A DNA stretch of 44,203 bases from an uncultured Candidatus Saccharibacteria bacterium. Lineage in GTDB: Bacteria; Patescibacteriota; Minisyncoccia; Phycocordibacterales; CSBR16-119. How positions within the stretch are numbered: position 1 is the first letter of the stretch; every line of letters begins with the position of its first letter. This document shows positions 1,549 through 20,150 of the stretch, piece after piece. The stretch lies in assembly GCA_964606255.1 (NCBI GenBank), contig CAZSFS010000002.1:1-44203 (forward strand), written 5' to 3'. The notes beneath the pieces are model-generated. The model did not search any database. It was not told the DNA's origin and saw only the letters and a list, made by a program, of their open reading frames with translations. Position numbers and translations under genes: made by a program.

Positions 1549-2103
1549 ATGACAACTTTAATCATTTTGGGGGTAGTCGCCGTTATTATTATCGGCATAT
1601 TTAATAGCTTAGTTAGGGCTCGTACCAGAGCTCTCGAAGCCTGGGCTGATATCGATGTCCAATTAAAACGTCGTTATGATCTCATTCCTAACTTGATCGA
1701 GACTGTCAAAGGTTACGCCACACATGAAAAAAATGTTTTAGAGTCTGTAACCAATGCTCGAAATATGGCGATTGGGAGCGGAGCTATGGGCACACCTGAG
1801 TCTCGTGACAAGGCGGAAAATGCTTTGAGCGCGACTTTGAAATCTTTGTTTGCTGTATCTGAAAATTATCCAGAACTTAAAGCCAATCAAAATTTTTTGT
1901 CGCTTCAGTCTGAGCTCTCGGATACCGAAAACAAGATTCAGGCTGCGCGTCGATTCTATAATAGTACGGTCAGAGACTTGAACATGAAGATCGAAACTTT
2001 TCCGACGAACATTTTTGCCGGAATGTTCCGATTCAAAATGAAAGAGTTCTTTGGTCTAGATGCTGCGCCGGCCGAGCGTGAGAATATCGCTGTGAAATTT
2101 TAA
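1549..2103 (+). CDS. lemA: LemA family membrane protein
   Basis: There is an N-terminal TM segment, then 'AWADIDVQLKRRYDLIPNLIETVKGYATHEK' and 'NYPELKANQNFLSLQSELSDTENKIQAARRFYN', which are typical LemA signatures. Confidence 0.85.
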   Translation: MTTLIILGVVAVIIIGIFNSLVRARTRALEAWADIDVQLKRRYDLIPNLIETVKGYATHEKNVLESVTNARNMAIGSGAMGTPESRDKAENALSATLKSLFAVSENYPELKANQNFLSLQSELSDTENKIQAARRFYNSTVRDLNMKIETFPTNIFAGMFRFKMKEFFGLDAAPAERENIAVKF

Positions 2104-2125
2104 TTAGAAATTTAATTTAGAAAAT

Positions 2126-2647
2126 ATGGATATTAATGAAACAAATAATATGCCGGTTGCCAAGAAGTCGAATATCTTAAACATCGTAATTATTATCTTG
2201 GTATTGGCACTTGTAGCCGTTTTCTTTGTTGGTAAGGGAAAAGATGACGCCAATGACGAAGTTGTGAATTCTGACAACGCCACCTCAACGACTTCGGATG
2301 CTGAAATAAACATGACCTCAAATACTTCGGCGGAAATACCTATGCCGGTTGGAACTTGGACTAGTGGATCAATCAAGAATGAAATTACTTTTGATGTTCC
2401 ACCTACTTATTATTTATCTCGACCAGTGATTGGAGAATGTTCTGATGTTGTGAGTATTTCAACTCAAACAACAAGGGCTCCGACTTTGCCGATAACTATT
2501 ATCTATAAAGAGGGTTGTGTGACAGACCCACTCGTGACAGGCAAATACACACATCGTGAAGTCAAAAACGGATACGTTTTTCAGACCAACGCCACGAATT
2601 CTTCTGTCGTGATCCTATTCAATAAGATTGTCGCAAGCGCGAAATAG
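2126..2647 (+). CDS. Hypothetical membrane-anchored protein
   Basis: This is a 173-aa ORF. It has an N-terminal TM segment (ILNIVIIILVLALVAVFFV), then an S/T/N/D-rich linker and a ~100-aa domain I do not recognise. A terminator follows. Confidence 0.55.
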   Translation: MDINETNNMPVAKKSNILNIVIIILVLALVAVFFVGKGKDDANDEVVNSDNATSTTSDAEINMTSNTSAEIPMPVGTWTSGSIKNEITFDVPPTYYLSRPVIGECSDVVSISTQTTRAPTLPITIIYKEGCVTDPLVTGKYTHREVKNGYVFQTNATNSSVVILFNKIVASAK

Positions 2648-2665
2648 AAAAATTTAGAGGAAAAA

Positions 2666-2693
2666 CAAAACTCGCCCTAGGGCGAGTTTTGTT
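2666..2693 (+). terminator. Rho-independent terminator
   Basis: The hairpin is CAAAACTCGCC-CTAG-GGCGAGTTTTG, followed by a T-run. Confidence 0.7.
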
Positions 2694-2706
2694 GTAATAT
2701 GGCGGT

Positions 2707-3597
2707 ATGCAAGCAAGCCTTTATACTCTCGCAGGAAAAAATGTCAGAAAAACCTGGTTTTTATTTACTGTATTTTTGATTATTGTTATTGGCCTCGGGT
2801 ATTTTTTATCAATCTATTTTGGTCACCCAGGAATCCTGTATTTCGCCGTTTTCTTTGCTATTTTTCAATCAGTTCTATCATATTGGTTCTCTCATAAAAT
2901 TGTTCTCTCTATGACGGGGGCTAAAGAAGCTTCACCCGAAGCGAACAGAGAACTCTGGAACATTGTTGAAAATCTATCGATCACGGCGGGGCTTCCAATG
3001 CCGAAACTCTATATCATCAATGATTCGATTCCGAATGCATTTGCTACGGGACGAGATAAAAAACACGCCGTTGTCGCCGTTACAACTGGTCTTATTGACG
3101 TTTTGAATAAAAATGAAATGGAAGGCGTTATTGCTCACGAACTTTCCCACATCGGTAATCGCGACATGCTGGTTTCAACCGTGGTCGTGGTGCTTGTCGG
3201 ATTTATTACCCTCATGGCCGATATGTTTTTGCGCTCGCAACTATTTGGTGGTGGTAATCGTGACCGTGAAGGCGGGGGACAGATCGGCGGGATTTTGTTT
3301 ATTGTTGGGATCGTTATCATGATCTTGTCGCCAATTATTGCTACACTGATTCAACTTTCAATTTCTAGAAAACGTGAATACCTCGCAGATGCCTCAGGAG
3401 CATTGCTTACTCGCTATCCAGAAGGTTTGGCGTCAGCCTTGGAGAAAATTTCGGCGCATTCTGGCAAGATGAAAAAGGCGAACCATGCTACTGCCCATCT
3501 TTTTATTTCAAATCCTTTTGGCGATAAAGTTCGTGGACTGTTCTCAACTCATCCGCCGGTAGAGAAACGGGTTGAGTTATTGAGAAAAAGTATTTAA
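2707..3597 (+). CDS. htpX: Zinc metalloprotease HtpX (peptidase M48)
   Basis: The HExxH motif appears in 'IAHELSHIGNRDM'. 'PNAFATG' and four TM segments are present, with 'EYLADASGA' downstream. A TAATAT box at 2695-2700 ends 6 nt before the ATG. Confidence 0.9.
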   Translation: MQASLYTLAGKNVRKTWFLFTVFLIIVIGLGYFLSIYFGHPGILYFAVFFAIFQSVLSYWFSHKIVLSMTGAKEASPEANRELWNIVENLSITAGLPMPKLYIINDSIPNAFATGRDKKHAVVAVTTGLIDVLNKNEMEGVIAHELSHIGNRDMLVSTVVVVLVGFITLMADMFLRSQLFGGGNRDREGGGQIGGILFIVGIVIMILSPIIATLIQLSISRKREYLADASGALLTRYPEGLASALEKISAHSGKMKKANHATAHLFISNPFGDKVRGLFSTHPPVEKRVELLRKSI

Positions 3598-6792: not shown

Positions 6793-6811
6793 TTGCGGAG
6801 ACGGGGAGATT
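6793..6811 (-). repeat. 19-nt duplicate of the 3' end of tRNA-Ser (acceptor 3' strand plus part of the T arm)
   Basis: TTGCGGAGACGGGGAGATT at 6793-6811 is identical to 6903-6921. The rest of a tRNA is absent here: there is no 5' acceptor strand and no T loop. Confidence 0.8.
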
Positions 6812-6864
6812 TACCCGTACGCTTCGCTTCCGAGTATAAACTTCTCATCTCACGCCCCACAGAC

Positions 6865-6891
6865 AAAATAAAAAAGTGGGCAGAACCCACT
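6865..6891 (-). terminator. Rho-independent terminator downstream of tRNA-Ser
   Basis: The minus strand reads AGTGGG-TTCTG-CCCACT followed by TTTTTTATTTT. Confidence 0.65.
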
Positions 6892-6905
6892 CTGTTGTTT
6901 TATTG

Positions 6906-6992
6906 CGGAGACGGGGAGATTCGAACTCCCGAAGGCTTTGACACCTTGCTACCTTTCCAAGATAGTGCACTCGACCACTATGCGACGTCTCC
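6906..6992 (-). tRNA. tRNA-Ser (anticodon GGA), class II with a long variable arm; CCA not encoded
   Basis: The reverse complement is GGAGACG-TC-GCA..TGC-A-CTATC-TTGGAAA-GGTAG-[AAGGT-GTCAAA-GCCTT]-C-GGGAG-TTCGAAT-CTCCC-CGTCTCC-G. It has a 7-bp acceptor stem, the 3-bp D stem typical of Ser, a canonical T loop and anticodon GGA. Confidence 0.9.
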
Positions 6993-7054
6993 AATAGATG
7001 AATACTAGCCTATTTGGGTAGCTTTTTCCAGCAATTCAAGAAATGATTATTTTC

Positions 7055-7063
7055 TGCTAAAAT
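7055..7063 (+). promoter_or_regulatory. Extended -10 box (TGcTAAAAT) 6 nt upstream of the mscL ATG
   Basis: The sequence reads TGCTAAAAT-gggggt-ATG(7070). Confidence 0.5.
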
Positions 7064-7069
7064 GGGGGT

Positions 7070-7480
7070 ATGTTAAAAGAATTTAAAGAGTTTGCATTGA
7101 AGGGCAATATGATCGACTTGGCTGTCGGTATTATTATCGGTGGAGCCTTTGGAACGGTTGTGAAGTCGCTTGTCGACGACGTGATTATGCCGGTCGTTTC
7201 TGGAGTTTTAAAGTTACCAGATTTTAGTAATTTATTTTTAGTGCTTCGCAATCCAACTGATGCCACATTTTCATCTCTCAGTGCAGCGAGAGAAGCAGGT
7301 GCTTCAGTTTTGGCGATAGGGAATTTCATAAATGCGTTTATTGCTTTTTTGTTGGTCGCGTTCGCTTTGTTTTTGGTTATCAAAGGCATGAACAAGTTCA
7401 AGAAACAACAAGCCGCTTTGCCTGCTGGTCCGACAGAACTGGAAGTACTCCAAGAAATTCGAGATTTGCTTAAGAAATAA
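7070..7480 (+). CDS. mscL: Large-conductance mechanosensitive channel
   Basis: 'MLKEFKEFALKGNMIDLAVGIIIGGAFGTVVKSLVDDVIMPVV' is the canonical MscL N-terminus and TM1. The protein is 136 aa. Confidence 0.93.
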   Translation: MLKEFKEFALKGNMIDLAVGIIIGGAFGTVVKSLVDDVIMPVVSGVLKLPDFSNLFLVLRNPTDATFSSLSAAREAGASVLAIGNFINAFIAFLLVAFALFLVIKGMNKFKKQQAALPAGPTELEVLQEIRDLLKK

Positions 7481-7483
7481 TTC

Positions 7484-8083
7484 ATGTTTACACTTCCAAA
7501 ATTAAATTACACATATGACGCTCTTGAGCCTCACATCGATGCGACTACGATGGAAATTCACCATACGAAACATCATCAAGCGTATATCGATAAATTAAAT
7601 AAAGCTATCACAGAAACCGAGTGGGCGGACAAATCTTTGGAAGAAATTTTGGCAAACGTTTCAAAGCTTGAACGACTTGTTAGAAACAACGCCGGCGGAC
7701 ATTGGAACCACAGTTTCTTTTGGACAATACTTGGACCAAACGTCGGAGGTGGTCCGTCAGGCGAACTATTAGAGAAAATAAATGCAACGTTTGGTAGCTT
7801 CGAAGAATTCAAAAATAAATTTACGGAATCAGCGACAACGCTTTTCGGTTCGGGTTGGGTGTGGCTCATAGTTCAAGATGGAAATTTGAAAATTATCCAA
7901 ACGCCACTTCAGGACAATCCACTCATGGATGATGCGAAAGAAAAAGGCATACCGATCTTGGGACTCGACGTTTGGGAGCATGCGTATTATCTGAAATATC
8001 AAAATAAACGACCAGACTACATTACCGCTTTCTGGAATGTTGTTAATTGGGAAAAAGTTTCAGAACTCTATGGATCTCGATAA
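7484..8083 (+). CDS. sod: Fe/Mn superoxide dismutase
   Basis: '[36 protein letters not shown]', '[10 protein letters not shown]' and '[21 protein letters not shown]' are present. I did not decide between Fe and Mn specificity. Confidence 0.93.
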
Positions 8084-8465
8084 AAGAAAAGAAGAATTAT
8101 CTGATCTCGAACGGGAAGTAACCCAGAATAAGGGAACCGAAGTGCCTTTTACGGGTGAACATTGGGATAGGAAAGACGAGGGGGGATATTCTTGTAAGGT
8201 TTGCGGGCAAATGCTTTTTACATCTGATACGAAGCTTGATTCAAGTGTCGGTCCTACCGGACTTCAAGGCTGGCCGGCTTTTGATCAGGCAATTCCAGGA
8301 ACTGTGAAATATCAAGACGACGACAGTGCAGGAATGCATCGTACTGAAGCGATCTGCTCAAACTGTGGGGCACACCTCGGACATCTTTTTCCAGATGATA
8401 CCAAGACTGGTGACCACTTGTGTATCAATTCCTGTTCGCTTGATTTTAAGCCGAAAGGAGAGTAA
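8070..8465 (+). CDS. msrB: Peptide-methionine (R)-S-oxide reductase MsrB
   Basis: The ATG at 8070 overlaps the sod 3' end by 14 nt. Zn-site CxxC pairs occur in 'CKVCGQMLF' and '[12 protein letters not shown]'. 'GWPAF' and the catalytic Cys in 'HLCINSCSL' are present. Confidence 0.85.
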
Positions 8466-8474
8466 AAATAGCAC

Positions 8475-10427
8475 ATGAAATCCTACGACTTCCTAAAAAA
8501 CATCAACAAAAAAATTCGTCCCGGCGACGATTTTTTCTCGTACGTAAATAGTAATTGGATAAAAAGGAATCCAATCCCGGCAGACCGTAGTCGTTGGGCC
8601 ATCTTTAATGTTCTGGCTGACGATGTACACAGGTCATTAAAGGGAATTCTTGATTCAATAGTTTTATCTTCAAAAATAAATGAAGAACAGAAAAAATTAC
8701 GAGACTTATTTTTATCCGGAATGAATGAGAAGAAATTAAATTCCGAAGGTGCAAAACCTATAAAAAGTCTGATTACAGGTATAGAAACAATTGATAAAAA
8801 AAATGTTATTGAAATTATTTCACAGCTACATAAATGTGGAATACATTCTTTCTGGGGACTTTACTTGGATTACGACGACAAAGATAGCTCTCAATATATT
8901 TTAAGGATTGGACAATCAGGGCTCAGTTTACCAGATCGAGAATATTATTTAGCCGAAGACAAAAAGTCCAAGGAAATTAGAAAAAAATATTTACATTCAA
9001 TTTTGTCTTTATCTAAACTTTCAGGATTTCCTATTACAAAAAAGGAGGCAGACGCCATATTGGAGATCGAAACAAGATTAGCTAGAGCCTCGCTTTCTAG
9101 GGTTGAAATTCGAGACGCTAACAAGCAATATAATGAATTTAATTTATTTAAACTAACAAAGATCTCATCAAAAATTGGTTGGGAAAAATATTTTAAAAAA
9201 CTTGGTTTTAAAAAAGATCTACTAAATAAATTTTTAGTAAACCACCCAACTTTTATTAAAGAAGTAAATAATATTTTAGAAAACTCTTCCCTAGATAATC
9301 TCAAAGTTTATCTCAAGTGGCGTACCATAGTCGATTCAGTCGGGTATCTAAGCGAAAAATTAGTAAAGGAGAGGTTTAAATTTTTTGGCAAAGTTTTATC
9401 TGGCGCGGAAAAAATAATCCCAAGATGGAAACGCACACTATTAGAAATTGATCACACTCTAGGAGATGTTCTGGGAAAACTATACGTTGAAAAATTCTTT
9501 CCATCAGAAGCTAAAAAAAGAATGAATTCAATGATAGATGATATTTTTGAGGCCTATAAAGAACGTATAAAAAACTTAGATTGGATGTCTCCCAAAACTA
9601 AAAAAAGAGCTTTACAAAAGCTGTCTCTAATTGATCGAAAAATTGGCTATACTAGTAAGTGGGAAAATTATTCTTCTCTAAAAGTTGGAAATTCTTATAT
9701 AGAAAATCATTGGCAATCAGAAGAATTTTATCTAAGAAAAATGATTAAAAAACTGACTAAAAAGAAAGTAGATCGTCGTGAGTGGCACATGTCAGCGCCG
9801 ACGGTGAATGCCTACTATTCGCCAAACATGAATGAAATAGTATTTCCTGCAGGAATTTTGCAGCCCCCATCTTTTGACCTACACGCAACCGACGCAATGA
9901 ATTATGGTGGAATAGGTTCTGTCATTGGTCACGAATTAACCCATGGTTTCGATGATGAAGGAAGTAAATTCGATCACAGGGGTAATTTAATAGAATGGTG
10001 GACAAAAAAAGACAGAAAGTTGTTTACTGAAAAAGCTAAAAATCTTGTTAAACAATATGATGCCTGTGAGGTCTTACCAGGAAGATTTTGTAATGGAAAA
10101 TTAACACTAGGTGAGAACATTGCTGACTTAGGAGGGCTCACGATTGCATTTGATGCTTTCAAACGCAGAATGAAAAAACAAACCAAAGGTGAAATCATAA
10201 ATGGATTTACACCAGAACAGCAATTTTTTATTGCTTGGGCTCGTGAATGGTCTGGTAGTATAAGAGAAGGTCAAGCGATCCAATATTTAATTACCGACCC
10301 ACATTCTCCGTTAGAACTTCGCGTCAATCAAGTCGTGAATAATCTTGATGCTTTTTACGAAGCTTTTGATGTTAAACCAGGCGACAAACTCTATCGAAAA
10401 CCCAAGGACCGAGTGAAAATCTGGTAG
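8475..10427 (+). CDS. pepO: M13 family zinc metallopeptidase (neprilysin / PepO-like)
   Basis: 'VIGHELTHGFDDEG' carries HExxH and 'LGENIADLGG' carries ENxADxGG. 'NAYYSPNMNEIVFPAGILQPP' and the C-terminal '..RVKIW' are present. This gene is markedly more AT-rich than its neighbours. Confidence 0.88.
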   Translation: MKSYDFLKNINKKIRPGDDFFSYVNSNWIKRNPIPADRSRWAIFNVLADDVHRSLKGILDSIVLSSKINEEQKKLRDLFLSGMNEKKLNSEGAKPIKSLITGIETIDKKNVIEIISQLHKCGIHSFWGLYLDYDDKDSSQYILRIGQSGLSLPDREYYLAEDKKSKEIRKKYLHSILSLSKLSGFPITKKEADAILEIETRLARASLSRVEIRDANKQYNEFNLFKLTKISSKIGWEKYFKKLGFKKDLLNKFLVNHPTFIKEVNNILENSSLDNLKVYLKWRTIVDSVGYLSEKLVKERFKFFGKVLSGAEKIIPRWKRTLLEIDHTLGDVLGKLYVEKFFPSEAKKRMNSMIDDIFEAYKERIKNLDWMSPKTKKRALQKLSLIDRKIGYTSKWENYSSLKVGNSYIENHWQSEEFYLRKMIKKLTKKKVDRREWHMSAPTVNAYYSPNMNEIVFPAGILQPPSFDLHATDAMNYGGIGSVIGHELTHGFDDEGSKFDHRGNLIEWWTKKDRKLFTEKAKNLVKQYDACEVLPGRFCNGKLTLGENIADLGGLTIAFDAFKRRMKKQTKGEIINGFTPEQQFFIAWAREWSGSIREGQAIQYLITDPHSPLELRVNQVVNNLDAFYEAFDVKPGDKLYRKPKDRVKIW

Positions 10428-10454
10428 ATTTCTGGAAGCTTTGAAATAAAAATA

Positions 10455-10499
10455 CGCAGGGCCGGCATGGAGCCGGCCCTTTGCGTCTTTGTGTTTTTT
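10455..10499. terminator. Bidirectional terminator between the M13 peptidase gene (+) and the 59-aa ORF (-)
   Basis: The hairpin is CGCAGGGCCGGC-ATGGA-GCCGGCCCTTTGCG. A T-rich tract follows on the + strand and an A-rich tract precedes it, which gives a T-run on the - strand. Confidence 0.7.
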
Positions 10500-10503
10500 A
10501 CCT

Positions 10504-10683
10504 TCAACGGTAGCCCTGGATGTAGGCGTTAGCGATGATATCGCTTTCACGGATTAGGTCCATGGCGATCTGTAAGATCATTTCGTTGAGCTCCTCATCT
10601 GTGCAGTGGTTCAAGCTTATGTGTTTATGTGCTGGTTTGTGCTTGCTTGTTTCGATGAAGGTAACCTTTTCTTTCTTGGTCAT
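10504..10683 (-). CDS. Hypothetical 59-aa protein (below the ORF-track cutoff)
   Basis: The minus-strand ATG is at 10683 and the TGA at 10504-10506. The translation is MTKKEKVTFIETSKHKPAHKHISLNHCTDEELNEMILQIAMDLIRESDIIANAYIQGYR. It has its own promoter and a downstream terminator. I recognise no family. Confidence 0.45.
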   Translation of the reverse strand: MTKKEKVTFIETSKHKPAHKHISLNHCTDEELNEMILQIAMDLIRESDIIANAYIQGYR

Positions 10684-10701
10684 GGTCGCGAGTTTTGTCT
10701 C

Positions 10702-10730
10702 AGATTACCCCAAGAAAAAGCCTTTGTAAA
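10702..10730 (-). promoter_or_regulatory. Putative promoter of the 59-aa ORF (TTTACA-17-TAATCT)
   Basis: On the minus strand TTTACA lies at 10730-10725, a 17-nt spacer follows, and TAATCT lies at 10707-10702. Confidence 0.45.
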
Positions 10731-10734
10731 GCCA

Positions 10735-10743
10735 TGCTACAAT
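10735..10743 (+). promoter_or_regulatory. Extended -10 box (TGcTACAAT) 6 nt upstream of the helicase-nuclease ATG
   Basis: The sequence reads TGCTACAAT-gtgtct-ATG(10750). Confidence 0.5.
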
Positions 10744-10749
10744 GTGTCT

Positions 10750-13731
10750 ATGAACAGTTTCGAAACTGGCTATAAAAGGCTAAATAAGGCCCAAAAGGAG
10801 GCTGTGGAGACTATTGACGGACCGGTGATGGTGGTGGCGGGGCCGGGGACTGGAAAGACCCAAATTCTCACTCTTCGCATTGCCAATATTTTACAGAAAA
10901 CGGATACTCCGGCTGACGGAATTCTGTGTCTAACTTTTACCAATTCTGGAGTTTTTGCCATGCGTGAAAGACTGCGGTCATACATTGGCGCTGCGGCCTC
11001 ACGTATACACATTTCGACATTTCACTCGTTCGCCATAAGTATGATCGAGGAATATTACGAAACACTGGATTTTGTCGAGAAGCCAACACTTATCGATGAC
11101 GTGGAATCAGCTCTTCTTTTTGATGCGATTTTGTCTGATCATGAGTGGAAACATCTTCGTACACGCTCCAACAAATCGCTTTATTTTCATGACATCAAAT
11201 CTCTCATTTCTCTTTTAAAACGTGAACGACTCAGTCCAGAAGATTTTAGCATTGAGATCAAAAACGAGATAAAAAATATTCAGAAAGATGAATCAAATAT
11301 ATCGACTCGTGGTGCATCGAAAGGATCTCTTAAACAAGAAGCGATAAAACGCATCGAAGGTTTGGAGCGAACCGAAGAGATTGTGAAATTTTATTCTTTG
11401 TATGAACTTTTGAAAAAGGCCAAAAACTTGCTTGATTTTGATGACGTGCTGGAAGAACTCGTTCGACTAGTCGAAATTTCTGACGATGCTCGCGACACCA
11501 TACGTGAAAAATATCTTTACGTTTTGGTTGATGAACATCAGGACTCAAGCGGTGTGCAAAATGAATTTTTGACTCGTGTCTGGGGCGATGTTGAAAAGCC
11601 AAATGTTTTTGTGGTGGGTGACGATCGTCAGCTTATTTATGGATTTGGTGGAGCGTCACTATCCTACTTTGAAAGTTTCAAAGAATCTTTTGGCGGTGTG
11701 AAATTGATTACCCTTACAGAAAATTATCGTTCAACTCAAAACATTTTAAATACAGCCGATGCACTTTTGAAAAGTTCTCTCGCCGAAGCCAAGCTTTTAT
11801 CGCAATCAAACGAAACCTATCCGCTTCGACTCATTGAAGCCGAGTATCCACGAGATGAGATTTTACGTGCCGGACTTGAGATCAAAGAGAAAATTGAAAA
11901 AGGCACTGATCCAAATGAGTGTGCGATATTAGTTCCTAAAAATAGAGAGGTCCGAAGCGCGGTCAAGATTCTGGGTGACCTAGGGATCCCGGTTGCCTCA
12001 TCGGGCCGAGAAAAGTTTTTTGCTGATCCAGAAGCCGAAAATTTTGTCGATATTTTGAAAACTTTGGATAATCCAGAAACTCCCGAACGCGTAGCCCCAT
12101 TGTTGCTTTCACCGCTTTCCGGAATTTCACCTCTTTCCGCTCATCGATTTTTGAATAGGGAAGATGCGCGTAAACTCACACTTTCGAAACTTCTGAAATT
12201 TAAAAAAGGTGAAAGCGAATACGAAGAAGATGATGAGATTGGTGAATTTGCTGAACTCTTGGCTTCTTGGCTTGTGTGTGCAAACGCTGGCGATATTCAT
12301 GTTTTGATACAAAAAATTGGTGAAGAACTTCTAATTAAAAATTCCAAAGATCACGAGACTCTGACCCGACGTGTTGAAATCATTCGAACACTTATACATT
12401 TAGCGCTTTCACAGATCGAGCGTAACCCTCGGATAAATCTATCGCAATTTTTAGATTTTATTGACAGACTTCGTGAATATGACACCGATATTCCAATGGC
12501 GACTTTTGAATCTGATCACGGAGTAAAAGTCATGACGCTTCACGCCTCCAAAGGTTTGGAGTTCGAGTGTGTTTATATCGCACATCTCGATGAGAAAAAT
12601 CTTCTAGGAAAACGTCGAAGCGGTTTTACTTTGCCCGAGCGCGTAAAAGAGTTGGAACATAAAAAGGGAGAAGAAGAAATGAAACGAGAACTTTATGTGG
12701 CCATCACTCGCGCCAAAAAGCACGCTACTCTTTCGTATTCACTTTACAATCACAGCGGCGCGCCACTTGAAGTTGCACACATCGTAAATGACTTGCCAGG
12801 AGAATTGCTTGAAAAAATCTCGGCTAGTGAAAATGAAAAATTCATTATGGGTTCTGGGATAGAAACTTTTGTTCGTTCAGGAGAGCGCGTGTACGATTCG
12901 GTTACGGCTGGTAAATTGGCCGAGATGCTAAAAAATGAATATTACAAACGTCGGCTCTCGGTTACACACCTCAACAACTTTTTTGAGTGTCCGTGGAAAT
13001 GGTATTTCCGAAACTTTTTACAACTTCCTGAGCCAAAAACCTTGCCGCTTGAATTTGGAAATGTTGTGCACGGAGTACTTGAACGAATTTTGAAAAATAA
13101 ATTATCGACAGATAAGAAATCAGTAACTGAAGCGATTACTGAAAAAGCCGATCGTTTATCTGGATTTTCCGACAAAGAAATTGAAGGAATCAAAAAAGAC
13201 GCGAGCGATGTGGTTTTTGCTTGGATAGAACGTGAACTTCCAAAAATTTTAGAAGAACACAAGAGTGAAGAATCTATTACCGTTCACGATTTGGGATTTG
13301 AGCATTTGGAGATTAATGGAAAAATCGATCTTGTTGAGCAAATCGAAGAGGGGGTTCTCCGTCTAACAGATTTCAAAACCGGGGGGCTCAAGAAAAAGTC
13401 CGAGATTGAAAAGGAGACAGACGAAGGTCGAATGTCTGACATGATGAGACAACTTGCGATGTATAGTTTTCTGATTGATCGAAAGACGGCCGGAAACGCG
13501 AGTGTCGAAGAATCACGACTTATGTTTGTCGAGCATTTGGATGAAAAAGATTCAGTTTATAAGACTCAAATTACTAGCGATCATGTCCGAAATTTAATTA
13601 AAGATATAGATGATTTTGATCAACTTCTGGCAACCGGAGAGTGGGTCGATCGACCGTGCCGATTCAAGCCATGGAAAAGCGGAGAGGTGTGCGAGTATTG
13701 TAAATTGGCCGAGATTTACAAGAAGAAATAA
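10750..13731 (+). CDS. UvrD/PcrA-type SF1 helicase fused to a C-terminal PD-(D/E)XK nuclease with four Cys (Cas4/AddB-like)
   Basis: Helicase motifs: 'AGPGTGKTQ' (I), 'VLVDEHQDSS' (II), 'TENYRST', 'VMTLHASKGLEF' and 'LYVAITRAKK' (VI). The nuclease module starts at about 12950 and contains 'FFECPWKWYF', 'GKIDLVEQ', 'LTDFKTG', 'QLAMYSF' and 'CRFKPWKSGEVCEYC'. Confidence 0.8.
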   Translation: MNSFETGYKRLNKAQKEAVETIDGPVMVVAGPGTGKTQILTLRIANILQKTDTPADGILCLTFTNSGVFAMRERLRSYIGAAASRIHISTFHSFAISMIEEYYETLDFVEKPTLIDDVESALLFDAILSDHEWKHLRTRSNKSLYFHDIKSLISLLKRERLSPEDFSIEIKNEIKNIQKDESNISTRGASKGSLKQEAIKRIEGLERTEEIVKFYSLYELLKKAKNLLDFDDVLEELVRLVEISDDARDTIREKYLYVLVDEHQDSSGVQNEFLTRVWGDVEKPNVFVVGDDRQLIYGFGGASLSYFESFKESFGGVKLITLTENYRSTQNILNTADALLKSSLAEAKLLSQSNETYPLRLIEAEYPRDEILRAGLEIKEKIEKGTDPNECAILVPKNREVRSAVKILGDLGIPVASSGREKFFADPEAENFVDILKTLDNPETPERVAPLLLSPLSGISPLSAHRFLNREDARKLTLSKLLKFKKGESEYEEDDEIGEFAELLASWLVCANAGDIHVLIQKIGEELLIKNSKDHETLTRRVEIIRTLIHLALSQIERNPRINLSQFLDFIDRLREYDTDIPMATFESDHGVKVMTLHASKGLEFECVYIAHLDEKNLLGKRRSGFTLPERVKELEHKKGEEEMKRELYVAITRAKKHATLSYSLYNHSGAPLEVAHIVNDLPGELLEKISASENEKFIMGSGIETFVRSGERVYDSVTAGKLAEMLKNEYYKRRLSVTHLNNFFECPWKWYFRNFLQLPEPKTLPLEFGNVVHGVLERILKNKLSTDKKSVTEAITEKADRLSGFSDKEIEGIKKDASDVVFAWIERELPKILEEHKSEESITVHDLGFEHLEINGKIDLVEQIEEGVLRLTDFKTGGLKKKSEIEKETDEGRMSDMMRQLAMYSFLIDRKTAGNASVEESRLMFVEHLDEKDSVYKTQITSDHVRNLIKDIDDFDQLLATGEWVDRPCRFKPWKSGEVCEYCKLAEIYKKK

Positions 13732-13748: not shown

Positions 13749-14789
13749 ATGGTTAAAAACGCCAATACCAAATCAAAAGCTGAACTCCTGGCCCAGATTG
13801 AAAGGGAAGATTTTCGTCGGAAAACTTTGTCTTTCTATAAATACGTCAAAATCACTAATCCAAAGGCGATGCGAGATTTTCTGTTTGAGAACTTCGAAAA
13901 ACTTGGATGTTTGGGGCGAATTTATGTTGCACACGAGGGCATAAATGCCCAGATGAATGTTCCAGAACCAAAATGGGATGAGTTTAATAATTTTATCCAA
14001 TCAATTCCAGAATTTGCCGGCGTACCGTTTAAGATCGCGGTGGAGGAAAAAGGGAAATCGTCTTTTTTGAAATTGATCGTAAAAGTTAGAAATAAAATTG
14101 TTGCGGACGGTATTGATGATCCGACGTTTGATCCGGGAAATACTGGCGAATATGCGACTGCCGAAGAGGCAAACGCAATGATTGATAGAGGTGCCACTGT
14201 TATTGATATGAGAAATCTTTATGAGGCAACCATCGGACATTTTGAAAATGCAAAGATAATGGAGGTGGATACTTTCCGTGAGCAGTTAGCCAAAGTCAAA
14301 GACATGTTCAAAGACGACAAAGATGAAGAAGTCCTGCTCTACTGTACTGGTGGAATTCGCTGTGAAAAGGCTTCGGCCTGGATGAAGCATAATGGATTTA
14401 AAAATGTAAAACACATAAAAGGTGGCGTGATCGATTATGCACATCAAGTTAAAGAAAAAGGTTTGCCAAATAAATTTAAAGGCAAAAATTTCGTTTTTGA
14501 TGAAAGATTGGGTGAGAGAATTGGAAATGAAATTATTTCAGATTGTCAGATCTGTTACAAAGAAAAGTGCGATGACTATATTCATTGCAAGAATCAGTTT
14601 TGCCACACCCTGTTTATTTGTTGTCCGAAATGCATTGCCAAACTTGATGGATACTGTTCGCGAGTGTGTTTGGTGGCCGACAAACTTCCCAAATCTCTAA
14701 ATAAGTTTTTCATTCGTGCCGATAGACAAAAGCACAAGAATCAATACAAGAAAAATTACAAGAGATCAAAAACAATTGTCCGCGATTAG
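13749..14789 (+). CDS. trhO: Rhodanese-domain protein of the UPF0176/YceA family (tRNA uridine(34) hydroxylase TrhO)
   Basis: 'LSFYKYVKITNPKAMRDFL...GRIYVAHEGINAQMNVP' is present. The rhodanese active-site loop appears as 'LLYCTGGIRCEKASAWMK'. The C-terminal tail is Cys-rich. Confidence 0.8.
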   Translation: MVKNANTKSKAELLAQIEREDFRRKTLSFYKYVKITNPKAMRDFLFENFEKLGCLGRIYVAHEGINAQMNVPEPKWDEFNNFIQSIPEFAGVPFKIAVEEKGKSSFLKLIVKVRNKIVADGIDDPTFDPGNTGEYATAEEANAMIDRGATVIDMRNLYEATIGHFENAKIMEVDTFREQLAKVKDMFKDDKDEEVLLYCTGGIRCEKASAWMKHNGFKNVKHIKGGVIDYAHQVKEKGLPNKFKGKNFVFDERLGERIGNEIISDCQICYKEKCDDYIHCKNQFCHTLFICCPKCIAKLDGYCSRVCLVADKLPKSLNKFFIRADRQKHKNQYKKNYKRSKTIVRD

Positions 14790-14801: not shown

Positions 14802-16778
14802 TTATTGGACGGTGAGCGGAAAAGTTGTTGTTGTTGAAAGTCCGGAAGTGGTATTTGTAATTATAATCGGTAATGTGTATTGTCCCGGTGCAGTGTTGGG
14901 ACCAATAAAGATACTAAAACTTCTATTTCTCTCATCATCAGGTTCTAGATTTGATAAAAATTCTACAACGGTAGGATTGTTAAAATTCGCCTGTGTGATT
15001 CCATTGGGGACTGTACCGAGTGTTGCTGTAAAATTTGTATTAGGACATGAAATATAATCCATATTTATAATTCGAAGCGTCACACCCCAGTTGTAACCAG
15101 AATTTCCAGGGTCAACGACCGTTGTGGGATTATTACCCCAGACACTTACCCTTGGTGGTAAATGAGTACAAGCAAGATTTGGATTCATGGTAACTTGAAA
15201 TCTTCGAGAATTTTGATTGATGGGTGGTAAAGTTGTGATCGTTAGACCATAACGAGGTTCTGAGTATGTTTGTCCTTGATTGAGTGATACTTGATATGGA
15301 TTTTCATTACTCAGATTTGGGGCTCCGCGGAGATATATCAGTCGAGCATTTTTTGTATCTAATTGATTAGCTACATTTCCTTCGTATCCTTCTTTGTACA
15401 CCATGATGCCATTTTTATTTTCAGCAATATTGTATGGGGGAACTTCTCCGCCGCCACCCTGCATTCCTCCAAGGGCCGGGGTATTGAGTCCCGCATCAAA
15501 ACCGTATCCATTGCGAAATTCTATCCATATGGGAGTTTTATTTGAGTTCATCGATGGTTTTATTTTATATGCTTTTGCTGTGGAATTTATAAAGGAAAGA
15601 GTCCCTGTGTTTGATATTGGTGAAGCAAGATCGCGTATGTTGTAAATACCAGACTCCGTAATAGTTTGGAGTTCGTTAGCGCTAAACCAGCCAAGTTTTG
15701 CTTTTGCCCAAGCATTAAAATGTAGACCAATTGTATTGTACGCCATGACATCAAAATAGTTTCCAACCGTTAAACTTTGGCAATCGTCAATAGATGGTGA
15801 TCCTTCACATGATAAACCGTGAGCGTGAAGAAGTCCCAAAGCATGACCAAATTCATGAATGAGTAGATGTTCAAGATTTGTGAGAACGTGAGAACCATTC
15901 ATGCTTTCAACCATTTGAAAGCTTTGACTGTTCCACATATTTACTGAAGTATTTACCCACGTTACTGTTTTATTATAGGTTACTCCATTTATCGTGTATG
16001 GTTGGGGACCGGTGTTAGACATACCATATGAAATATTTCCATCACAAAGAGTGATGATGAGGATATTTGTATAATTATTAAGATCAATGGAGGATCCAGC
16101 TATGAATGGACCCAAATCACTTGTTGTAGCGGGGCACGATTCGTTTTCCGCCGTGGTGAACCAGCCAAACACATCGCCAGTAATTGACTGTCTACCGTAA
16201 GACACCTCATTAAAATATTGTTTGAATTTTCCCGTGCCGAACATGATATCGTTTACGGTTGAAGGATAGAATGGTTGAGATGAGCTATTTTGATTGTCTA
16301 ACAAAAATACAGCCAATTTTTTAGTCTTTTTTGATGTTAATGGTTGAGTTTTTTTTGCTTCCCTCACACCATCAAAAGTTTCTCCGACAAACTTTGCGTT
16401 CGACAATGTTACAATTCCTGTTTTTGTATCTAGCGTTCCCTTGACATCATAATAACCATTTTTAAAATTCACTACTATGTCGTCTCCCACGACCAAGTAT
16501 CTTTTTCCATTTATGAATATTTCTTGAATGATTTTCTCACTTCCTTCTTTTAAAAAATTTTCAGATATGGTGATACCGATAGGATATTTACCAGCTATTT
16601 CAACTTTTGTTCCAACTTCTTCTTTTATTGGGGACGTTTGAGTTACTTTTGTGTTAACGAAAAGCAAGACTCCGGCCATTTGACCATTCACCGGATTAAT
16701 ACTTGTAATTGAAACAGATAGCGCCGATAAAATTATGGCAAAAGTAATCAGACCACCCTTAGACATATTTGTTTTCAT
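14802..16778 (-). CDS. Secreted zinc metalloprotease with an M6 (immune inhibitor A-like) domain and a C-terminal beta-sandwich-like domain
   Basis: The N-terminus is signal/TM-like (MKTNMSKGGLITFAIILSALSVS). 'YFNEVSYGRQSITGDVFGWFT' is typical of the M6 domain. The motif 'IHEFGHALGLLHAHG' fits HExxHxxGxxH. The start could instead be 16766. Confidence 0.75.
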   Translation of the reverse strand: MKTNMSKGGLITFAIILSALSVSITSINPVNGQMAGVLLFVNTKVTQTSPIKEEVGTKVEIAGKYPIGITISENFLKEGSEKIIQEIFINGKRYLVVGDDIVVNFKNGYYDVKGTLDTKTGIVTLSNAKFVGETFDGVREAKKTQPLTSKKTKKLAVFLLDNQNSSSQPFYPSTVNDIMFGTGKFKQYFNEVSYGRQSITGDVFGWFTTAENESCPATTSDLGPFIAGSSIDLNNYTNILIITLCDGNISYGMSNTGPQPYTINGVTYNKTVTWVNTSVNMWNSQSFQMVESMNGSHVLTNLEHLLIHEFGHALGLLHAHGLSCEGSPSIDDCQSLTVGNYFDVMAYNTIGLHFNAWAKAKLGWFSANELQTITESGIYNIRDLASPISNTGTLSFINSTAKAYKIKPSMNSNKTPIWIEFRNGYGFDAGLNTPALGGMQGGGGEVPPYNIAENKNGIMVYKEGYEGNVANQLDTKNARLIYLRGAPNLSNENPYQVSLNQGQTYSEPRYGLTITTLPPINQNSRRFQVTMNPNLACTHLPPRVSVWGNNPTTVVDPGNSGYNWGVTLRIINMDYISCPNTNFTATLGTVPNGITQANFNNPTVVEFLSNLEPDDERNRSFSIFIGPNTAPGQYTLPIIITNTTSGLSTTTTFPLTVQ

Positions 16779-16824
16779 ATGGTCAAATTTTAGCACAAAG
16801 GCTTTTTGCAACAAAAGGATTTAT

Positions 16825-16833
16825 TGGTATATT
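16825..16833 (+). promoter_or_regulatory. Extended -10 box (TGgTATATT) 7 nt upstream of the pheS ATG
   Basis: The sequence reads TGGTATATT-taacccc-ATG(16841). Confidence 0.45.
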
Positions 16834-16840
16834 TAACCCC

Positions 16841-17974
16841 ATGGAAATCAAAGTCGATACTTCGAAACAAGAAGAACTCTTGAAAGGCCTAGAGTCCCGA
16901 ACCGATATCGAAGCCCTACGTATGAAGCGGTATTTGGGCATGGCTGATTTGGCCCGGACCCCTGGAAGCCCCCTTTACGAGATCGTGGAACGAGTAAAAA
17001 AGGTTCCAGCACTTGCGGGACTTGATATTATCGAGATCCCAGAAATCGTTCCAGCTGAAATCACATTCGATCTTTTCGACTTTCCGGCTGACCATGTGGC
17101 TCGTTCGACTTCGGATACTTACTATGTCGACGCTAAAAATATTTTACGTACCCACAATACTGTTTCTTGGTATTACTATTTCAATTCTCCAGATGTCAAA
17201 GAAAAATTTGCGCGCAAAGAACATCTCGGGGCGCTTTGTTTTGGAAAGGTTTACAGAAAAGATGAAATCGACCGCCGGCACATGAATGTCTTTCACCAGA
17301 TTGATGGATGGAAACTCATCCCAGATACAGAAGGAACTCTCCCGCTAGATGAATTGAAAAGAGTTTTGTCGGAAATCGTTGAAAATGTTTTTGGTAAAGA
17401 AACGGAGTATCGATTTCTTGACGATGAATTCCCGTACACCGATCCATCGACGCAAATTGAAGTTATGGTCAATGGTCAATGGGTAGAAATCTTGGGTGCT
17501 GGAATGGTTAAACCGTCCGTTCTCGCTAAACTCGGTATTACTGGCTACAACGGCTGGGCTTTCGGCTTCGGCATCGAACGCCTTGCGATTCTTTCAATGG
17601 AACTTCCTGACATCAGACTTCTTTGGTCAAACGACGAGCGTGTAAAGAAACAGTTGGTGCTTGGAACTAAATTCAAAGAAGTTAGTAAATATCCAGCAAT
17701 CGTGCGCGACATTTCTTTTATTGTCGATTCTGCGACATTTCAACCAAATGTGTATTTCGATCTCGTGCGTGATGTTGTCGGTGACATGGCTGAAGAAATG
17801 GCACTCGTCGATGAATATGAAAATGCAGCGAAGTTTGGTGAAGGCAAGAAAAGTTATGCGTACCGCGTAACGTACCGATCGCTCGATCGAACGTTGACTG
17901 ACACGGAAGTAAACGATCTCCATAAAAAACTCGAAGAAGAAACAAGAAGAGTTTTAAACGCGACGGTTCGCTAA
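16841..17974 (+). CDS. pheS: Phenylalanine-tRNA ligase: alpha-type catalytic core fused to a C-terminal FDX-ACB anticodon-binding domain (mitochondrial-type architecture)
   Basis: The class II core shows 'FDFPADHVARSTSDTYYV', 'GKVYRKDEIDRRHMNVFHQIDG' and 'GWAFGFGIERLAIL'. The C-terminus 'SKYPAIVRDISFIVDS..YFDLVRDVVGDMAEEMALVDEY..KKSYAYRVTYRSLDRTLTDTEVN' is an FDX-ACB fold, normally found in PheT or in mitochondrial PheRS. Confidence 0.85.
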   Translation: MEIKVDTSKQEELLKGLESRTDIEALRMKRYLGMADLARTPGSPLYEIVERVKKVPALAGLDIIEIPEIVPAEITFDLFDFPADHVARSTSDTYYVDAKNILRTHNTVSWYYYFNSPDVKEKFARKEHLGALCFGKVYRKDEIDRRHMNVFHQIDGWKLIPDTEGTLPLDELKRVLSEIVENVFGKETEYRFLDDEFPYTDPSTQIEVMVNGQWVEILGAGMVKPSVLAKLGITGYNGWAFGFGIERLAILSMELPDIRLLWSNDERVKKQLVLGTKFKEVSKYPAIVRDISFIVDSATFQPNVYFDLVRDVVGDMAEEMALVDEYENAAKFGEGKKSYAYRVTYRSLDRTLTDTEVNDLHKKLEEETRRVLNATVR

Positions 17975-18107: not shown

Positions 18108-20150
18108 ATGGCTGAAAAGGTAAAAGGTAGTTATAACGCTGACGATATTTCGGTTCTCGAGGGTCTTGAGCCTGTCAGAAAGCGTCCTGGAATGTACATT
18201 GGTTCGACTGGACCGGATGGTCTTCATCACCTCATCAAAGAAATTTTTGACAACTCCCGCGACGAAGCTATGGCCGGACATTGTGATCACATCGAGGTTA
18301 CTTTGCTTCCAGGCAACATCGTGCGCGTAGCCGATAATGGCCGAGGAATTCCAGTTGATCTTCATAAACAAACAAAAGTTTCTGCGCTCGAAACTATTCT
18401 CACAGTTCTTCACGCCGGTGGAAAATTCGGCGGTAAGGACAAAGGTTACAAAGTTTCCGGAGGTTTGCACGGCGTTGGTGCTTCAGTCGTAAACGCTCTC
18501 TCTATCTACATGAAAGCCGAAGTACATCGCGATGGCGGTAAATTCGTCCAAGAATACAAACAGGGAAAACCAAAAGCCAAAGTCAAAGAGATCGGCAAAT
18601 CAAAACTTCACGGAACGATCATTTCTTTCGAACCAGATGTTGAAATTTTCAAAGAAGTAAAATTTGATTGGAACAGAATAGTTCATCACTATCGCGAACA
18701 AGCCTATCTCGTCAAAAAACTTCGCATTACGCTTATCGACGCGCGTGGATATGCGGGTAAGGTTCCTGAAGACGGATATTATTACTTCCAAGAAACGGGC
18801 ATCGAGGTTCCTTCGACAACTTTTTATTTCGAAGGAGGAATCGTCTCAATGGTCGCGCACTATAACAAAGATCAGAAAAAAATTCAGGACAAAATTTTCT
18901 CAGTCGACAAAGATGTCGACGATATCAACGTCGAGATTGCGCTTCAATATGTCGATGATATCGTGGATCACATTATTCCTTTTGCCAACAACATTTCAAC
19001 TCCGGGCGGCGGTATGCACGTCACCGGTTTTAAAACTGCGCTTACTCGTCTAATCAACAACTACTCGAAGAAAAATAATATTTTGAACGAAAAGGAAGGC
19101 GGATTTACTGGTGAGGACGTACTCGAGGGACTCACTGCTGTTATTTCTATTAAAATGCCGGAAATTCAGTTCGAAGGCCAGACCAAAGACAAGCTTGGTT
19201 CACCCGAAGCTCGTGGAGCCGTCGAAACAGTTTTCTCGACTGCATTTTCACAATTCCTCGAAGAAAATCCTGATGAAGCTCGCGCAATTTTAAATAAAGC
19301 AGTTCTTGCTCTCAAAGCACGTAAAGCCGCCAAAGCCGCGAAAGATTCAGTTCTCCGCAAAGGCGCACTCGAGGGCTTAACGCTACCAGGTAAACTTGCC
19401 GACTGTCAGTCCAAAGATCCATCAGAATCAGAACTATTCATCGTCGAGGGAGACTCTGCGGGCGGTTCGACCAAAATGGGTCGCGATCGTCGTACTCAGG
19501 CCGTACTTCCACTCAAAGGAAAAATTCTAAACGTCGAACGCGCACGCCTCGACAAGATGCTTGATTCGAAAGAAGTAAAGTCTCTCGTCATCGCACTCGG
19601 AACTTCTATCGGCGACACTTTCAATCTCGAAGACATTCGCTATCACAAAATCATTATCGCAACCGATGCCGACGTGGACGGCGCGCACATTCGAACACTT
19701 CTTCTGACATTGTTTTATCGATATTTCAAACCGGTTATAGAAGCAGGTTACATCTACATCGCCCAGCCACCACTCTATAAAATTACAAAAGGCAAAATGG
19801 TGACATATCTTTATTCTGACGAAGATAAAAATAAATTCTTGAAAGCCGAAGGAATCAAAGAAGGCGATGTTCAAATTGTCGAAGAGTCCGAATCTGGTGA
19901 GCCAGTCGAAGAAACACCGGAAAAGAAAGCTTCGAAGATTTCTGTTCAGCGTTACAAGGGTCTCGGAGAAATGAACCCAGACGAACTCAAGGAAACAACG
20001 ATGGATGTAAACAATCGAATTCTTCTACAAGTCAAAATCGAAGACGCTGTCGAAGCTGACAAAACTTTCGACATCCTGATGGGTTCAGAAGTTCCTCCTC
20101 GAAAATCTTTCATCCAATCAAACGCCAAATTAGCAGAGATTGATATATAG
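18108..20150 (+). CDS. gyrB: DNA gyrase subunit B
   Basis: 'YNADDISVLEGLEPVRKRPGMYIG', 'LHAGGKFGG..YKVSGGLHGVGASVVNALS', 'PGKLADC', the Toprim motif 'EGDSAGGS', 'IIIATDADVDGAHI' and 'QRYKGLGEMNPDEL' are all present. Confidence 0.95.
   Translation: MAEKVKGSYNADDISVLEGLEPVRKRPGMYIGSTGPDGLHHLIKEIFDNSRDEAMAGHCDHIEVTLLPGNIVRVADNGRGIPVDLHKQTKVSALETILTVLHAGGKFGGKDKGYKVSGGLHGVGASVVNALSIYMKAEVHRDGGKFVQEYKQGKPKAKVKEIGKSKLHGTIISFEPDVEIFKEVKFDWNRIVHHYREQAYLVKKLRITLIDARGYAGKVPEDGYYYFQETGIEVPSTTFYFEGGIVSMVAHYNKDQKKIQDKIFSVDKDVDDINVEIALQYVDDIVDHIIPFANNISTPGGGMHVTGFKTALTRLINNYSKKNNILNEKEGGFTGEDVLEGLTAVISIKMPEIQFEGQTKDKLGSPEARGAVETVFSTAFSQFLEENPDEARAILNKAVLALKARKAAKAAKDSVLRKGALEGLTLPGKLADCQSKDPSESELFIVEGDSAGGSTKMGRDRRTQAVLPLKGKILNVERARLDKMLDSKEVKSLVIALGTSIGDTFNLEDIRYHKIIIATDADVDGAHIRTLLLTLFYRYFKPVIEAGYIYIAQPPLYKITKGKMVTYLYSDEDKNKFLKAEGIKEGDVQIVEESESGEPVEETPEKKASKISVQRYKGLGEMNPDELKETTMDVNNRILLQVKIEDAVEADKTFDILMGSEVPPRKSFIQSNAKLAEIDI

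Follow-up and report, generated by a model that had tools for sequence, protein, structure and literature searches.

A single-chain phenylalanyl-tRNA synthetase, apparently a bacterial sister form of the mitochondrial enzyme, as the probable sole PheRS of a Saccharibacteria lineage

The 44,203-nucleotide stretch of DNA analyzed here (contig CAZSFS010000002.1 of the Candidatus Saccharibacteria metagenome-assembled genome, or MAG, GCA_964606255.1; hereafter the window) encodes a phenylalanyl-tRNA synthetase (PheRS) in which a PheS-type catalytic core and the ferredoxin-fold anticodon-binding (FDX-ACB) domain otherwise found in PheT are carried by a single chain. We regard this fused gene as very probably the organism's sole, non-editing, single-chain housekeeping PheRS, and by its sequence the protein is a bacterial variant that stands as sister to the mitochondrial enzyme. 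Monomeric PheRS was described as mitochondrial and unique in a 2010 review (PMC3275996), and AARS Online gives PheRS-M with 3CMQ/FARS2 only (PMC11580382). Our full-text literature search found no description of a bacterial or candidate phyla radiation (CPR) single-chain PheRS, which is not proof of novelty.

The initial annotation of the locus had described a PheS core joined directly to an FDX-ACB domain within 377 aa, and both parts are recovered by Pfam far above their gathering scores (PF01409, tRNA-synt_2d, at residues 43-271; PF03147, FDX-ACB, at residues 282-377), with the single amendment that the second domain maps to 17684-17971 rather than to 17681-17971. The same domain is matched by model positions 694-798 of TIGR00472. 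The reading frame, of 377 codons plus a stop, contains no internal stops and is also open in the orthologues from six same-genus genomes (378-392 aa); since these align from query residue 1 and leave at most 1-15 open codons upstream of the aligned start, ATG 16841 can be taken as the start. The junction between the two parts looks like a pheS-pheT operon minus its middle, to judge from the residues on either side: the PheS-type part reaches its natural C-terminus (...DIRLLWSNDERVKKQL), five residues follow, and the B8 domain then begins at its natural boundary (FKEVSKYPAIVRDISF), which may be compared with the two-subunit relative G029, where PheS ends ...DIRLFYSGDTRFLRQF before its stop and the B8 domain of PheT begins FKPFSLFPRIIRDIALF.

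The prediction that the editing module has been lost along with the rest of PheT was borne out at the scale of the genome. The assembly to which the window belongs (540 kb in 57 contigs) is 89% complete, and profile searches found in it no pheT, no B3_4 domain, no B5 domain, and no second pheS. There, TIGR00472 matches only the FDX-ACB domain of the fused gene and a 129-aa stand-alone tRNA-binding domain (28 bits, C5:5415-5666), and a weak second match to tRNA-synt_2d on contig C17 was discarded as LysRS. On that same contig (L004, G000:C17, 877-2931), a run of Ns fuses lysS in frame to mraZ and creates an artificial open reading frame (ORF) of 684 aa. The genome does encode a tRNA-Phe(GAA) with A73, hence an available substrate. 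Given the 89% completeness, the absence of pheS-pheT rests mainly on the congeners: in the six same-genus genomes, which are 96-100% complete, the fused gene is present, and neither pheT, B3_4, B5, nor a second pheS was found. When the survey was extended to 41 genomes of the order, 14 were found to carry the fused gene without pheS/pheT, 26 an adjacent pheS-pheT pair without the fused gene, one neither, and none both. The 14 carriers comprise all seven members of the genus, four other members of the family, and one genome from each of three other families. pheT is absent too from five fused-type genomes of other classes, and Kaiserbacteria and Yanofskybacteria MAGs, as well as a 0.6-Mb MAG labelled Gammaproteobacteria, harbor the fused type without pheT. 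The genome with neither enzyme type (G031, 98% complete) encodes tRNA-Phe, and its apparent lack of a PheRS is probably an assembly gap. Another genome, with 6% contamination, has the fused gene twice (G012:C23:7799-10108), as identical inverted copies separated by 49 nt (8929, 8978), which are either an assembly artefact or a genuine inverted duplication.

From a locus perspective, the fused gene occupies the very place of the canonical operon. In G007, a canonical member of the same family, some 6 kb of intervening genes separate gyrB from pheT, after which come pheS, a protease, a TrhO-like gene, and a helicase-nuclease; in the window and in G013 and G017, two fused-type genomes that share G007's genus code, the fused gene fills exactly the pheT-pheS slot between the same anchors. 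The flanks align up to the junctions at 70-85% nucleotide identity, such that positions 6797-11919 of the G007 locus (L114) correspond to positions 7877-9211 of the G017 locus (L116, on G017:C6). In the latter locus, the TrhO-like/UPF0176 gene appears split at 9385-10232 into ORFs of 139 and 106 aa, maybe by a frameshift or as a pseudogene. The fused genes of the window and of G017 are 74.6% identical at the nucleotide level and their flanking genes 76%, and this agreement argues that the swap is old in the window's lineage; the window's fused gene also falls in a clade confined to its own family. Possible routes for such a swap are a phase of redundancy followed by loss, which we count as possible because a Gracilibacteria MAG holds both enzymes, or a replacement by recombination through the conserved flanks. 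On the side of the substrate, the tRNA-Phe (GAA, A73) of the fused-type G017 is identical to that of the canonical G019, and that of the fused-type G001 to those of the canonical G015 and G018; accordingly, no covariation of tRNA-Phe with enzyme type was found between fused and canonical hosts. The swap thus required no tRNA change, which fits an enzyme reading the standard bacterial identity set, namely the GAA anticodon and A73. Under the scenario that we favor, an old bacterial family gene would have taken over the pheS-pheT slot in this Saccharibacteria lineage and left tRNA-Phe unaltered.

The class II motif residues for catalytic competence are present, with a single substitution, of Phe by Tyr at position 199. 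Full or almost full conservation throughout both the bacterial and the mitochondrial clade (described below) is seen in motif 2 (R139, D141, D144, H147, F151, and Q153), in motif 3 (A240, G242, G244, and R247), and at F197. The pocket strand F197-P198-Y199-T200 aligns to F232-P233-F234-T235 of the human enzyme and to F258/F260/V261 of Thermus thermophilus, and Y199 is invariant among 24 family sequences. Two pocket Phe residues grip the substrate ring edge-to-face in bacterial PheRS, the second being replaced by Tyr in all archaeal and eukaryotic cytosolic PheRS, and Thr235 is a mitochondrial peculiarity (PMC3275996). Against the same-genus orthologues, pN amounts to 0.08-0.13 and pS to 0.66-0.79 (saturated), with a dN/dS of 0.03-0.05 where computable; on these substitution rates, the fused gene is under strong purifying selection.

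The likeness to the human mitochondrial enzyme that the initial annotation had drawn is found again by phmmer, with 3CMQ/5MGU as best Protein Data Bank (PDB) match (2e-58) and, in the alignment, RDISFIVDS.../YRVTYRSLDRTLTDTEVN of the fused protein opposite NDISFWLPS.../YRITYRHMERTLSQREV of the human one. An AlphaFold2 (AF2) model built with the family alignment (pLDDT 91.7, pTM 0.81) points in the same direction, since Foldseek ranks 1-7 are all human mitochondrial PheRS (mtPheRS). Its best global fit is to the open, tRNA-bound 3TUP_A (TM 0.78, root-mean-square deviation [rmsd] 3.5 Å over 404 columns), whereas the closed human mtPheRS structures superpose poorly overall (TM 0.56, rmsd 19 Å), which suggests that the model is in the tRNA-binding domain arrangement. 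If the fused enzyme works like its human mitochondrial homologue, ATP would be bound by the class II core via R139 of motif 2 and R247 of motif 3, the phenyl ring would be clasped between F197 and Y199 over a floor formed by A240/G242/G244, and Phe-AMP would then be formed. The C-terminal FDX-ACB domain would read the GAA anticodon and, hinged on its short linker, swing from a closed to an open, tRNA-binding position and back, so that the A73 end could reach the active site. Because the genome lacks a B3/B4 site, Tyr-tRNA-Phe would not be clearable by the synthetase, and accuracy would depend on the synthetic site alone. We infer the aminoacylation activity, the monomeric state, the domain swing, and the fidelity of the fused enzyme from its homology with the human one.

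With regard to family assignment, the top NCBIfam match of the protein is NF051887 (SrmL, a PheS-related mystery ligase), at 246.6 bits for a cut-off of 300, and membership is thus not supported. TIGR00469 (pheS_mito, the equivalog model for organellar PheRS of eukaryotes) scores 240.2 bits, under its cut-off of 258.35, so that the description of the enzyme as mitochondrial-type holds for its architecture but not for membership of the curated mitochondrial family, and we assign the protein to a bacterial sister family instead. To place this family, we inferred phylogenies from the Patescibacteria fused genes and 50%-identity representatives of the whole family, from the PheS/PheT of 20-24 bacteria (among them Saccharibacteria of the same family and four Alphaproteobacteria), and from three SrmL-type sequences, namely two plasmid proteins passing the SrmL cut-off and a homologue from a megaphage, which clusters with these two; catalytic-core trees were built with IQ-TREE on 225-226 columns. 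In these trees, canonical PheS is set apart from a single clade that unites all single-chain proteins (100/99, stem 0.72-0.82). Within it, a bacterial clade that includes the window protein is supported at 100/98 without SrmL in the tree and at 91-94 with it. A second clade (96-100/98), identified as mitochondrial by NCBIfam cut-offs and by the placement of a human sequence taken from the alignment, contains the human enzyme nested inside, apart from the window protein, and its six scored representatives pass TIGR00469 with 264-308 bits. SrmL forms a clade of its own (100/100) on a very long branch (stem 1.5-1.8), weakly joined to the bacterial one. A tree of the FDX-ACB domain alone also sets the fused bacterial and mitochondrial domains against the B8 domains of PheT (99/92).

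As the initial annotation had anticipated, the locus therefore bears on the origin of the organellar enzyme, since the bacterial and mitochondrial families come out as closest relatives whether the core or the FDX-ACB domain is used for the tree. Judged by profiles and trees, the bacterial family, made up mostly of Patescibacteria, is the sister of the mitochondrial enzyme and a member of neither curated family. The single clade in the core tree and the agreement of the FDX-ACB tree argue that the fusion arose once; the two clades being reciprocally monophyletic, they are silent on which way the gene passed between bacteria and eukaryotes. The canonical PheS closest to the single-chain clade in the best tree come from Bacillota and Actinomycetota (93/82), and the alphaproteobacterial PheS is not a neighbour of that clade; forcing the two together costs 14.3 log-likelihood units and is not rejected (approximately unbiased test, p = 0.131). 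Among the alphaproteobacterial sequences, the PheS encoded by plasmid pAB510a of Azospirillum sp. B510 (L157, 765076-765672) groups with the saccharibacterial canonical PheS (99/98), apart from other Alphaproteobacteria, a position that may reflect horizontal acquisition of this copy or an artefact of the tree.

Set beside the mitochondrial PheRS (FARS2, closed in 3CMQ and open in 3TUP; yeast MSF1; TIGR00469), the fused protein has the same succession of a PheS core and an FDX-ACB domain with no editing module. The mitochondrial enzyme also provides its best sequence match in the PDB, its best structural match (for a predicted model), and its sister clade in both trees, and the two share a Thr in the pocket (T200, human T235) where T. 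thermophilus has Val. It differs from the mitochondrial enzyme in being bacterial, encoded on a Saccharibacteria chromosome, and under the TIGR00469 cut-off, in adding 42 residues of N-terminal helices and an insertion of about 24 residues between motifs 1 and 2, in missing the mitochondrial insertion of about 30 residues after motif 2, and in having Tyr199 where the human enzyme has Phe234. SrmL is likewise a bacterial single chain of about 350-370 aa with a PheS core and FDX-ACB, and lies inside the same single-chain clade. However, true SrmL proteins score 514.7 and 524 bits against NF051887, compared with the 246.6 of the fused protein, and branch separately. The three SrmL-type sequences, of 359-372 aa, hold 0-1 Phe (one in L119, from an Azotobacter plasmid; none in L120, from a Glutamicibacter plasmid; none in L121, from the 634-kb phage LR745206.1), when the fused protein contains 17. 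The two proteins that pass the cut-off are plasmid-borne and the third, unscored, lies on a huge phage, whereas the window gene replaces pheS-pheT; the hosts of the two SrmL plasmids presumably have a normal PheST. As for the canonical (alpha-beta)2 PheRS (TIGR00468/TIGR00472; 1PYS, 3PCO), its core is homologous to that of the fused protein (about 33% identity to same-family PheS), its B8 domain is homologous to FDX-ACB, and the tRNA-Phe of the hosts is identical. The fused protein, for its part, is a single chain without B1, B2, B3/4 (editing), B5, and B6/7, has no pheT beside it, and is divided from all 24 sampled canonical PheS by a branch whose length is 0.72-0.82 changes per site.

Beyond the order, 26 of the 401 sampled Patescibacteria genomes carry the bacterial single-chain family, including entire families within Paceibacteria-type lineages. 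Carriers bear the names Kaiserbacteria, Yanofskybacteria, Azambacteria, Paceibacterota, Saccharibacteria, and Gracilibacteria, to which one Oligoflexia MAG is added. The saccharibacterial sequences are scattered at at least four separate, well-supported positions in the tree, beside Paceibacteria or Oligoflexia, which suggests that Saccharibacteria gained the fused gene several times. A tblastn search of 50,697 phage records found no close relative, its sole two-domain match being a huge uncultured phage (28.6% identity) whose protein groups with SrmL, and a pattern scan of IMG/VR found no member of the family. In databases, members are named "phenylalanyl-tRNA synthetase alpha chain" by JGI and "hypothetical protein" by NCBI (for the three members with an NCBI name).

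Several observations weigh against the view that the fused gene is a sole, single-chain PheRS akin to the mitochondrial one: the incompleteness of its genome, the scores under the cut-offs of TIGR00469 and also of TIGR00468 (pheS; 166.6 vs. 237.45 bits), the Tyr at position 199 where bacterial and mitochondrial enzymes have Phe, and the monomeric state, which is assumed from the human enzyme. To these must be added a Gracilibacteria MAG (G440, CALREC01, 0.8 Mb) in which a family member (L050; 41% identity, with two in-frame TGA codons that code 25 reads as Gly) is found together with a pheT of full length (596 bits; its eight in-frame TGA codons fit code 25), so that family members are not always the sole PheRS; this co-occurrence could be a transitional or an accessory state. 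It could accordingly be supposed that the fused gene is an SrmL-like accessory paralogue, with a role in stress or as a backup, and that the real pheS-pheT lies in the unassembled 11% of the genome, a supposition that the Gracilibacteria case and the rank of SrmL as top NCBIfam model would favor. We consider it very improbable, as the protein stays under the SrmL cut-off that true members far exceed (515-524 bits), lies off their long branch, and does not share their near-absence of Phe, while the six nearly complete congeners have the fused gene only and, over 41 genomes, the fused gene and pheS-pheT share a locus and never occur together. That the sequence is foreign, either a mis-binned eukaryotic or organellar fragment or a gene that passed recently from a eukaryote to a bacterium and is limited to this MAG, would account for the mitochondrial identity of the closest solved structures and of the closest named family. 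Yet the gene sits in mid-contig among conserved saccharibacterial genes with a synteny kept across many MAGs, falls in a separate bacterial clade rather than nesting within the mitochondrial one, and has family members in the 26 Patescibacteria genomes mentioned above; synteny and phylogeny refute this reading, to which we give next to no credence.

A further alternative accepts the fused gene as sole PheRS and disputes that it acts as a lone monomer. Most class II synthetases dimerise, and the enzyme might do so too or be helped by a separate tRNA-binding protein replacing the lost PheT contacts. The 129-aa stand-alone EMAP/B2-like domain on contig C5 would be a candidate for such a role, and the conserved N-terminal helical pair and the insertion, both foreign to the mitochondrial enzyme, could be read in the same sense. 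In two Paceibacteria genomes, moreover, a strong B2-like ORF (105-107 bits, 137-177 aa) lies directly 5' of the fused gene and on its strand (G055:C1:517943-518296 and G229:C3:22708-23103), and may encode a trans-acting tRNA-binding partner. We nevertheless find this alternative rather unlikely: relatives with canonical pheS-pheT have the same stand-alone domain, which is thus not specific to the fused type in the order, and it is not adjacent to the fused gene in the window's own genome. The AF2 model, obtained for the chain alone, is also predicted in the open tRNA-binding arrangement, and a monomer suffices for full activity of the human homologue (PMC3275996).

Returning to the single-chain enzyme as sole PheRS, its phylogenetic position invites a scenario for its origin that we put forward tentatively, holding it possible rather than probable. 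The single-chain PheRS may have been invented in bacteria when a pheS-pheT operon lost everything that separates the end of pheS from the B8-coding part of pheT, and the eukaryotic ancestor may owe its organellar PheRS to such a bacterium rather than having assembled it as mitochondria were reduced; among bacteria, the design would then survive in Patescibacteria and in a few others with small genomes, and SrmL would be a second bacterial offshoot. Whatever its origin, a one-chain PheRS in a free-living bacterial lineage would imply that this design is not an organellar peculiarity, and by gaining a bacterial sister group the mitochondrial enzyme becomes amenable to tests of FARS2/MSF1 origin by phylogeny and biochemistry. 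Close relatives with the same tRNA-Phe, some with a proofreading and some with a non-proofreading PheRS, would also constitute a natural experiment on fidelity. From an annotation perspective, pheS and pheT are standard markers for completeness and phylogenomics, and single-chain lineages will be counted as missing them.

The features of the locus are collected in table 1. Next to the start codon, we found no Shine-Dalgarno sequence at the usual distance 5' of ATG 16841, and the position of the promoter-like site suggests that the mRNA of the fused gene may be leaderless or very short-leadered. The gene lying downstream is gyrB, as stated in the initial annotation, and not pheT.

Table 1. Coordinates of the single-chain PheRS gene, of its parts, and of neighboring features in the window
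Feature	Position	Strand	Evidence and remarks
Single-chain PheRS, complete coding sequence, 377 aa + stop	16841..17974	+	ORF, Pfam, orthologue alignment
N-terminal extension, residues 1-42, helices 8-18 and 23-33	16841..16966	+	Family alignment, AF2 secondary structure, PheS lengths
Class II PheS-type catalytic core, residues 43-271	16967..17653	+	PF01409, E 6e-54; Foldseek matches to bacterial PheS alpha chains
Family-specific insertion, residues ~106-129 (WYYYFNSPDVKEKFARKEHLGA), between motifs 1 and 2	17156..17227	+	Alignments; AF2 helices 106-114 and 117-124
Motif 2, residues 135-153 (GKVYRKDEIDRRHMNVFHQ)	17243..17299	+	Conserved alignment columns
Putative Phe-pocket strand F197-P198-Y199-T200	17429..17440	+	Residue alignment to 3CMQ, 24-sequence family alignment
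Motif 3, residues 238-250 (GWAFGFGIERLAI), with A240, G242, G244, R247	17552..17590	+	Invariant or nearly invariant columns in three alignments
Five-residue junction V273-K277 (VLGTK)	17657..17671	+	Compared with PheS end and PheT B8 start of relative G029
FDX-ACB (PheT B8-type) anticodon-binding domain, residues 282-377	17684..17971	+	PF03147, E 2.7e-21; TIGR00472; domain tree
Promoter-like TTGCAA-16-TATATT with TG extension	16806..16833	+	Consensus match only, not functional evidence; ends 7 nt before ATG
gyrB, downstream synteny anchor, not part of the enzyme	18108..20150	+	Four GyrB Pfam domains
UPF0176/rhodanese (TrhO-like) gene, upstream anchor, not part of the enzyme	13749..14789	+	Pfam
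Secreted zinc-metalloprotease-like gene (divergent), upstream anchor, not part of the enzyme	14802..16778	-	Pfam

Two parts of the protein set it apart from its relatives. The N-terminal extension is kept in the bacterial family, with R27, L32, and L37 invariant in the 24-sequence alignment, and the canonical PheS of related Saccharibacteria, of about 240 aa, is without it. The insertion at residues ~106-129 is missing from the mitochondrial clade (alignment columns 201-245).

Finally, the canonical enzymes of the relatives are themselves reduced. In G027, G008, G037, G014, and G007 (L005-L008, L114), PheS is only about 240-250 aa long and has no N-terminal coiled-coil arm, and PheT, of about 600-656 aa, is without model positions ~42-156, that is, the B2 domain, which Mukai et al. 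2017 (PMC5370408) had already noted to be lost from the PheT of CPR bacteria. An even shorter PheT is encoded by G029, a Saccharibacterium of the same order with a 100% complete genome, which keeps two subunits: this mini-PheT of only 424 aa (L124, G029:C1:40500-46500, 1988-3262, minus strand) comprises B5, a catalytic-like module, and FDX-ACB, and has neither B3_4 nor B1/B2. The lack of B3_4 suggests that proofreading was lost independently in a two-subunit enzyme.

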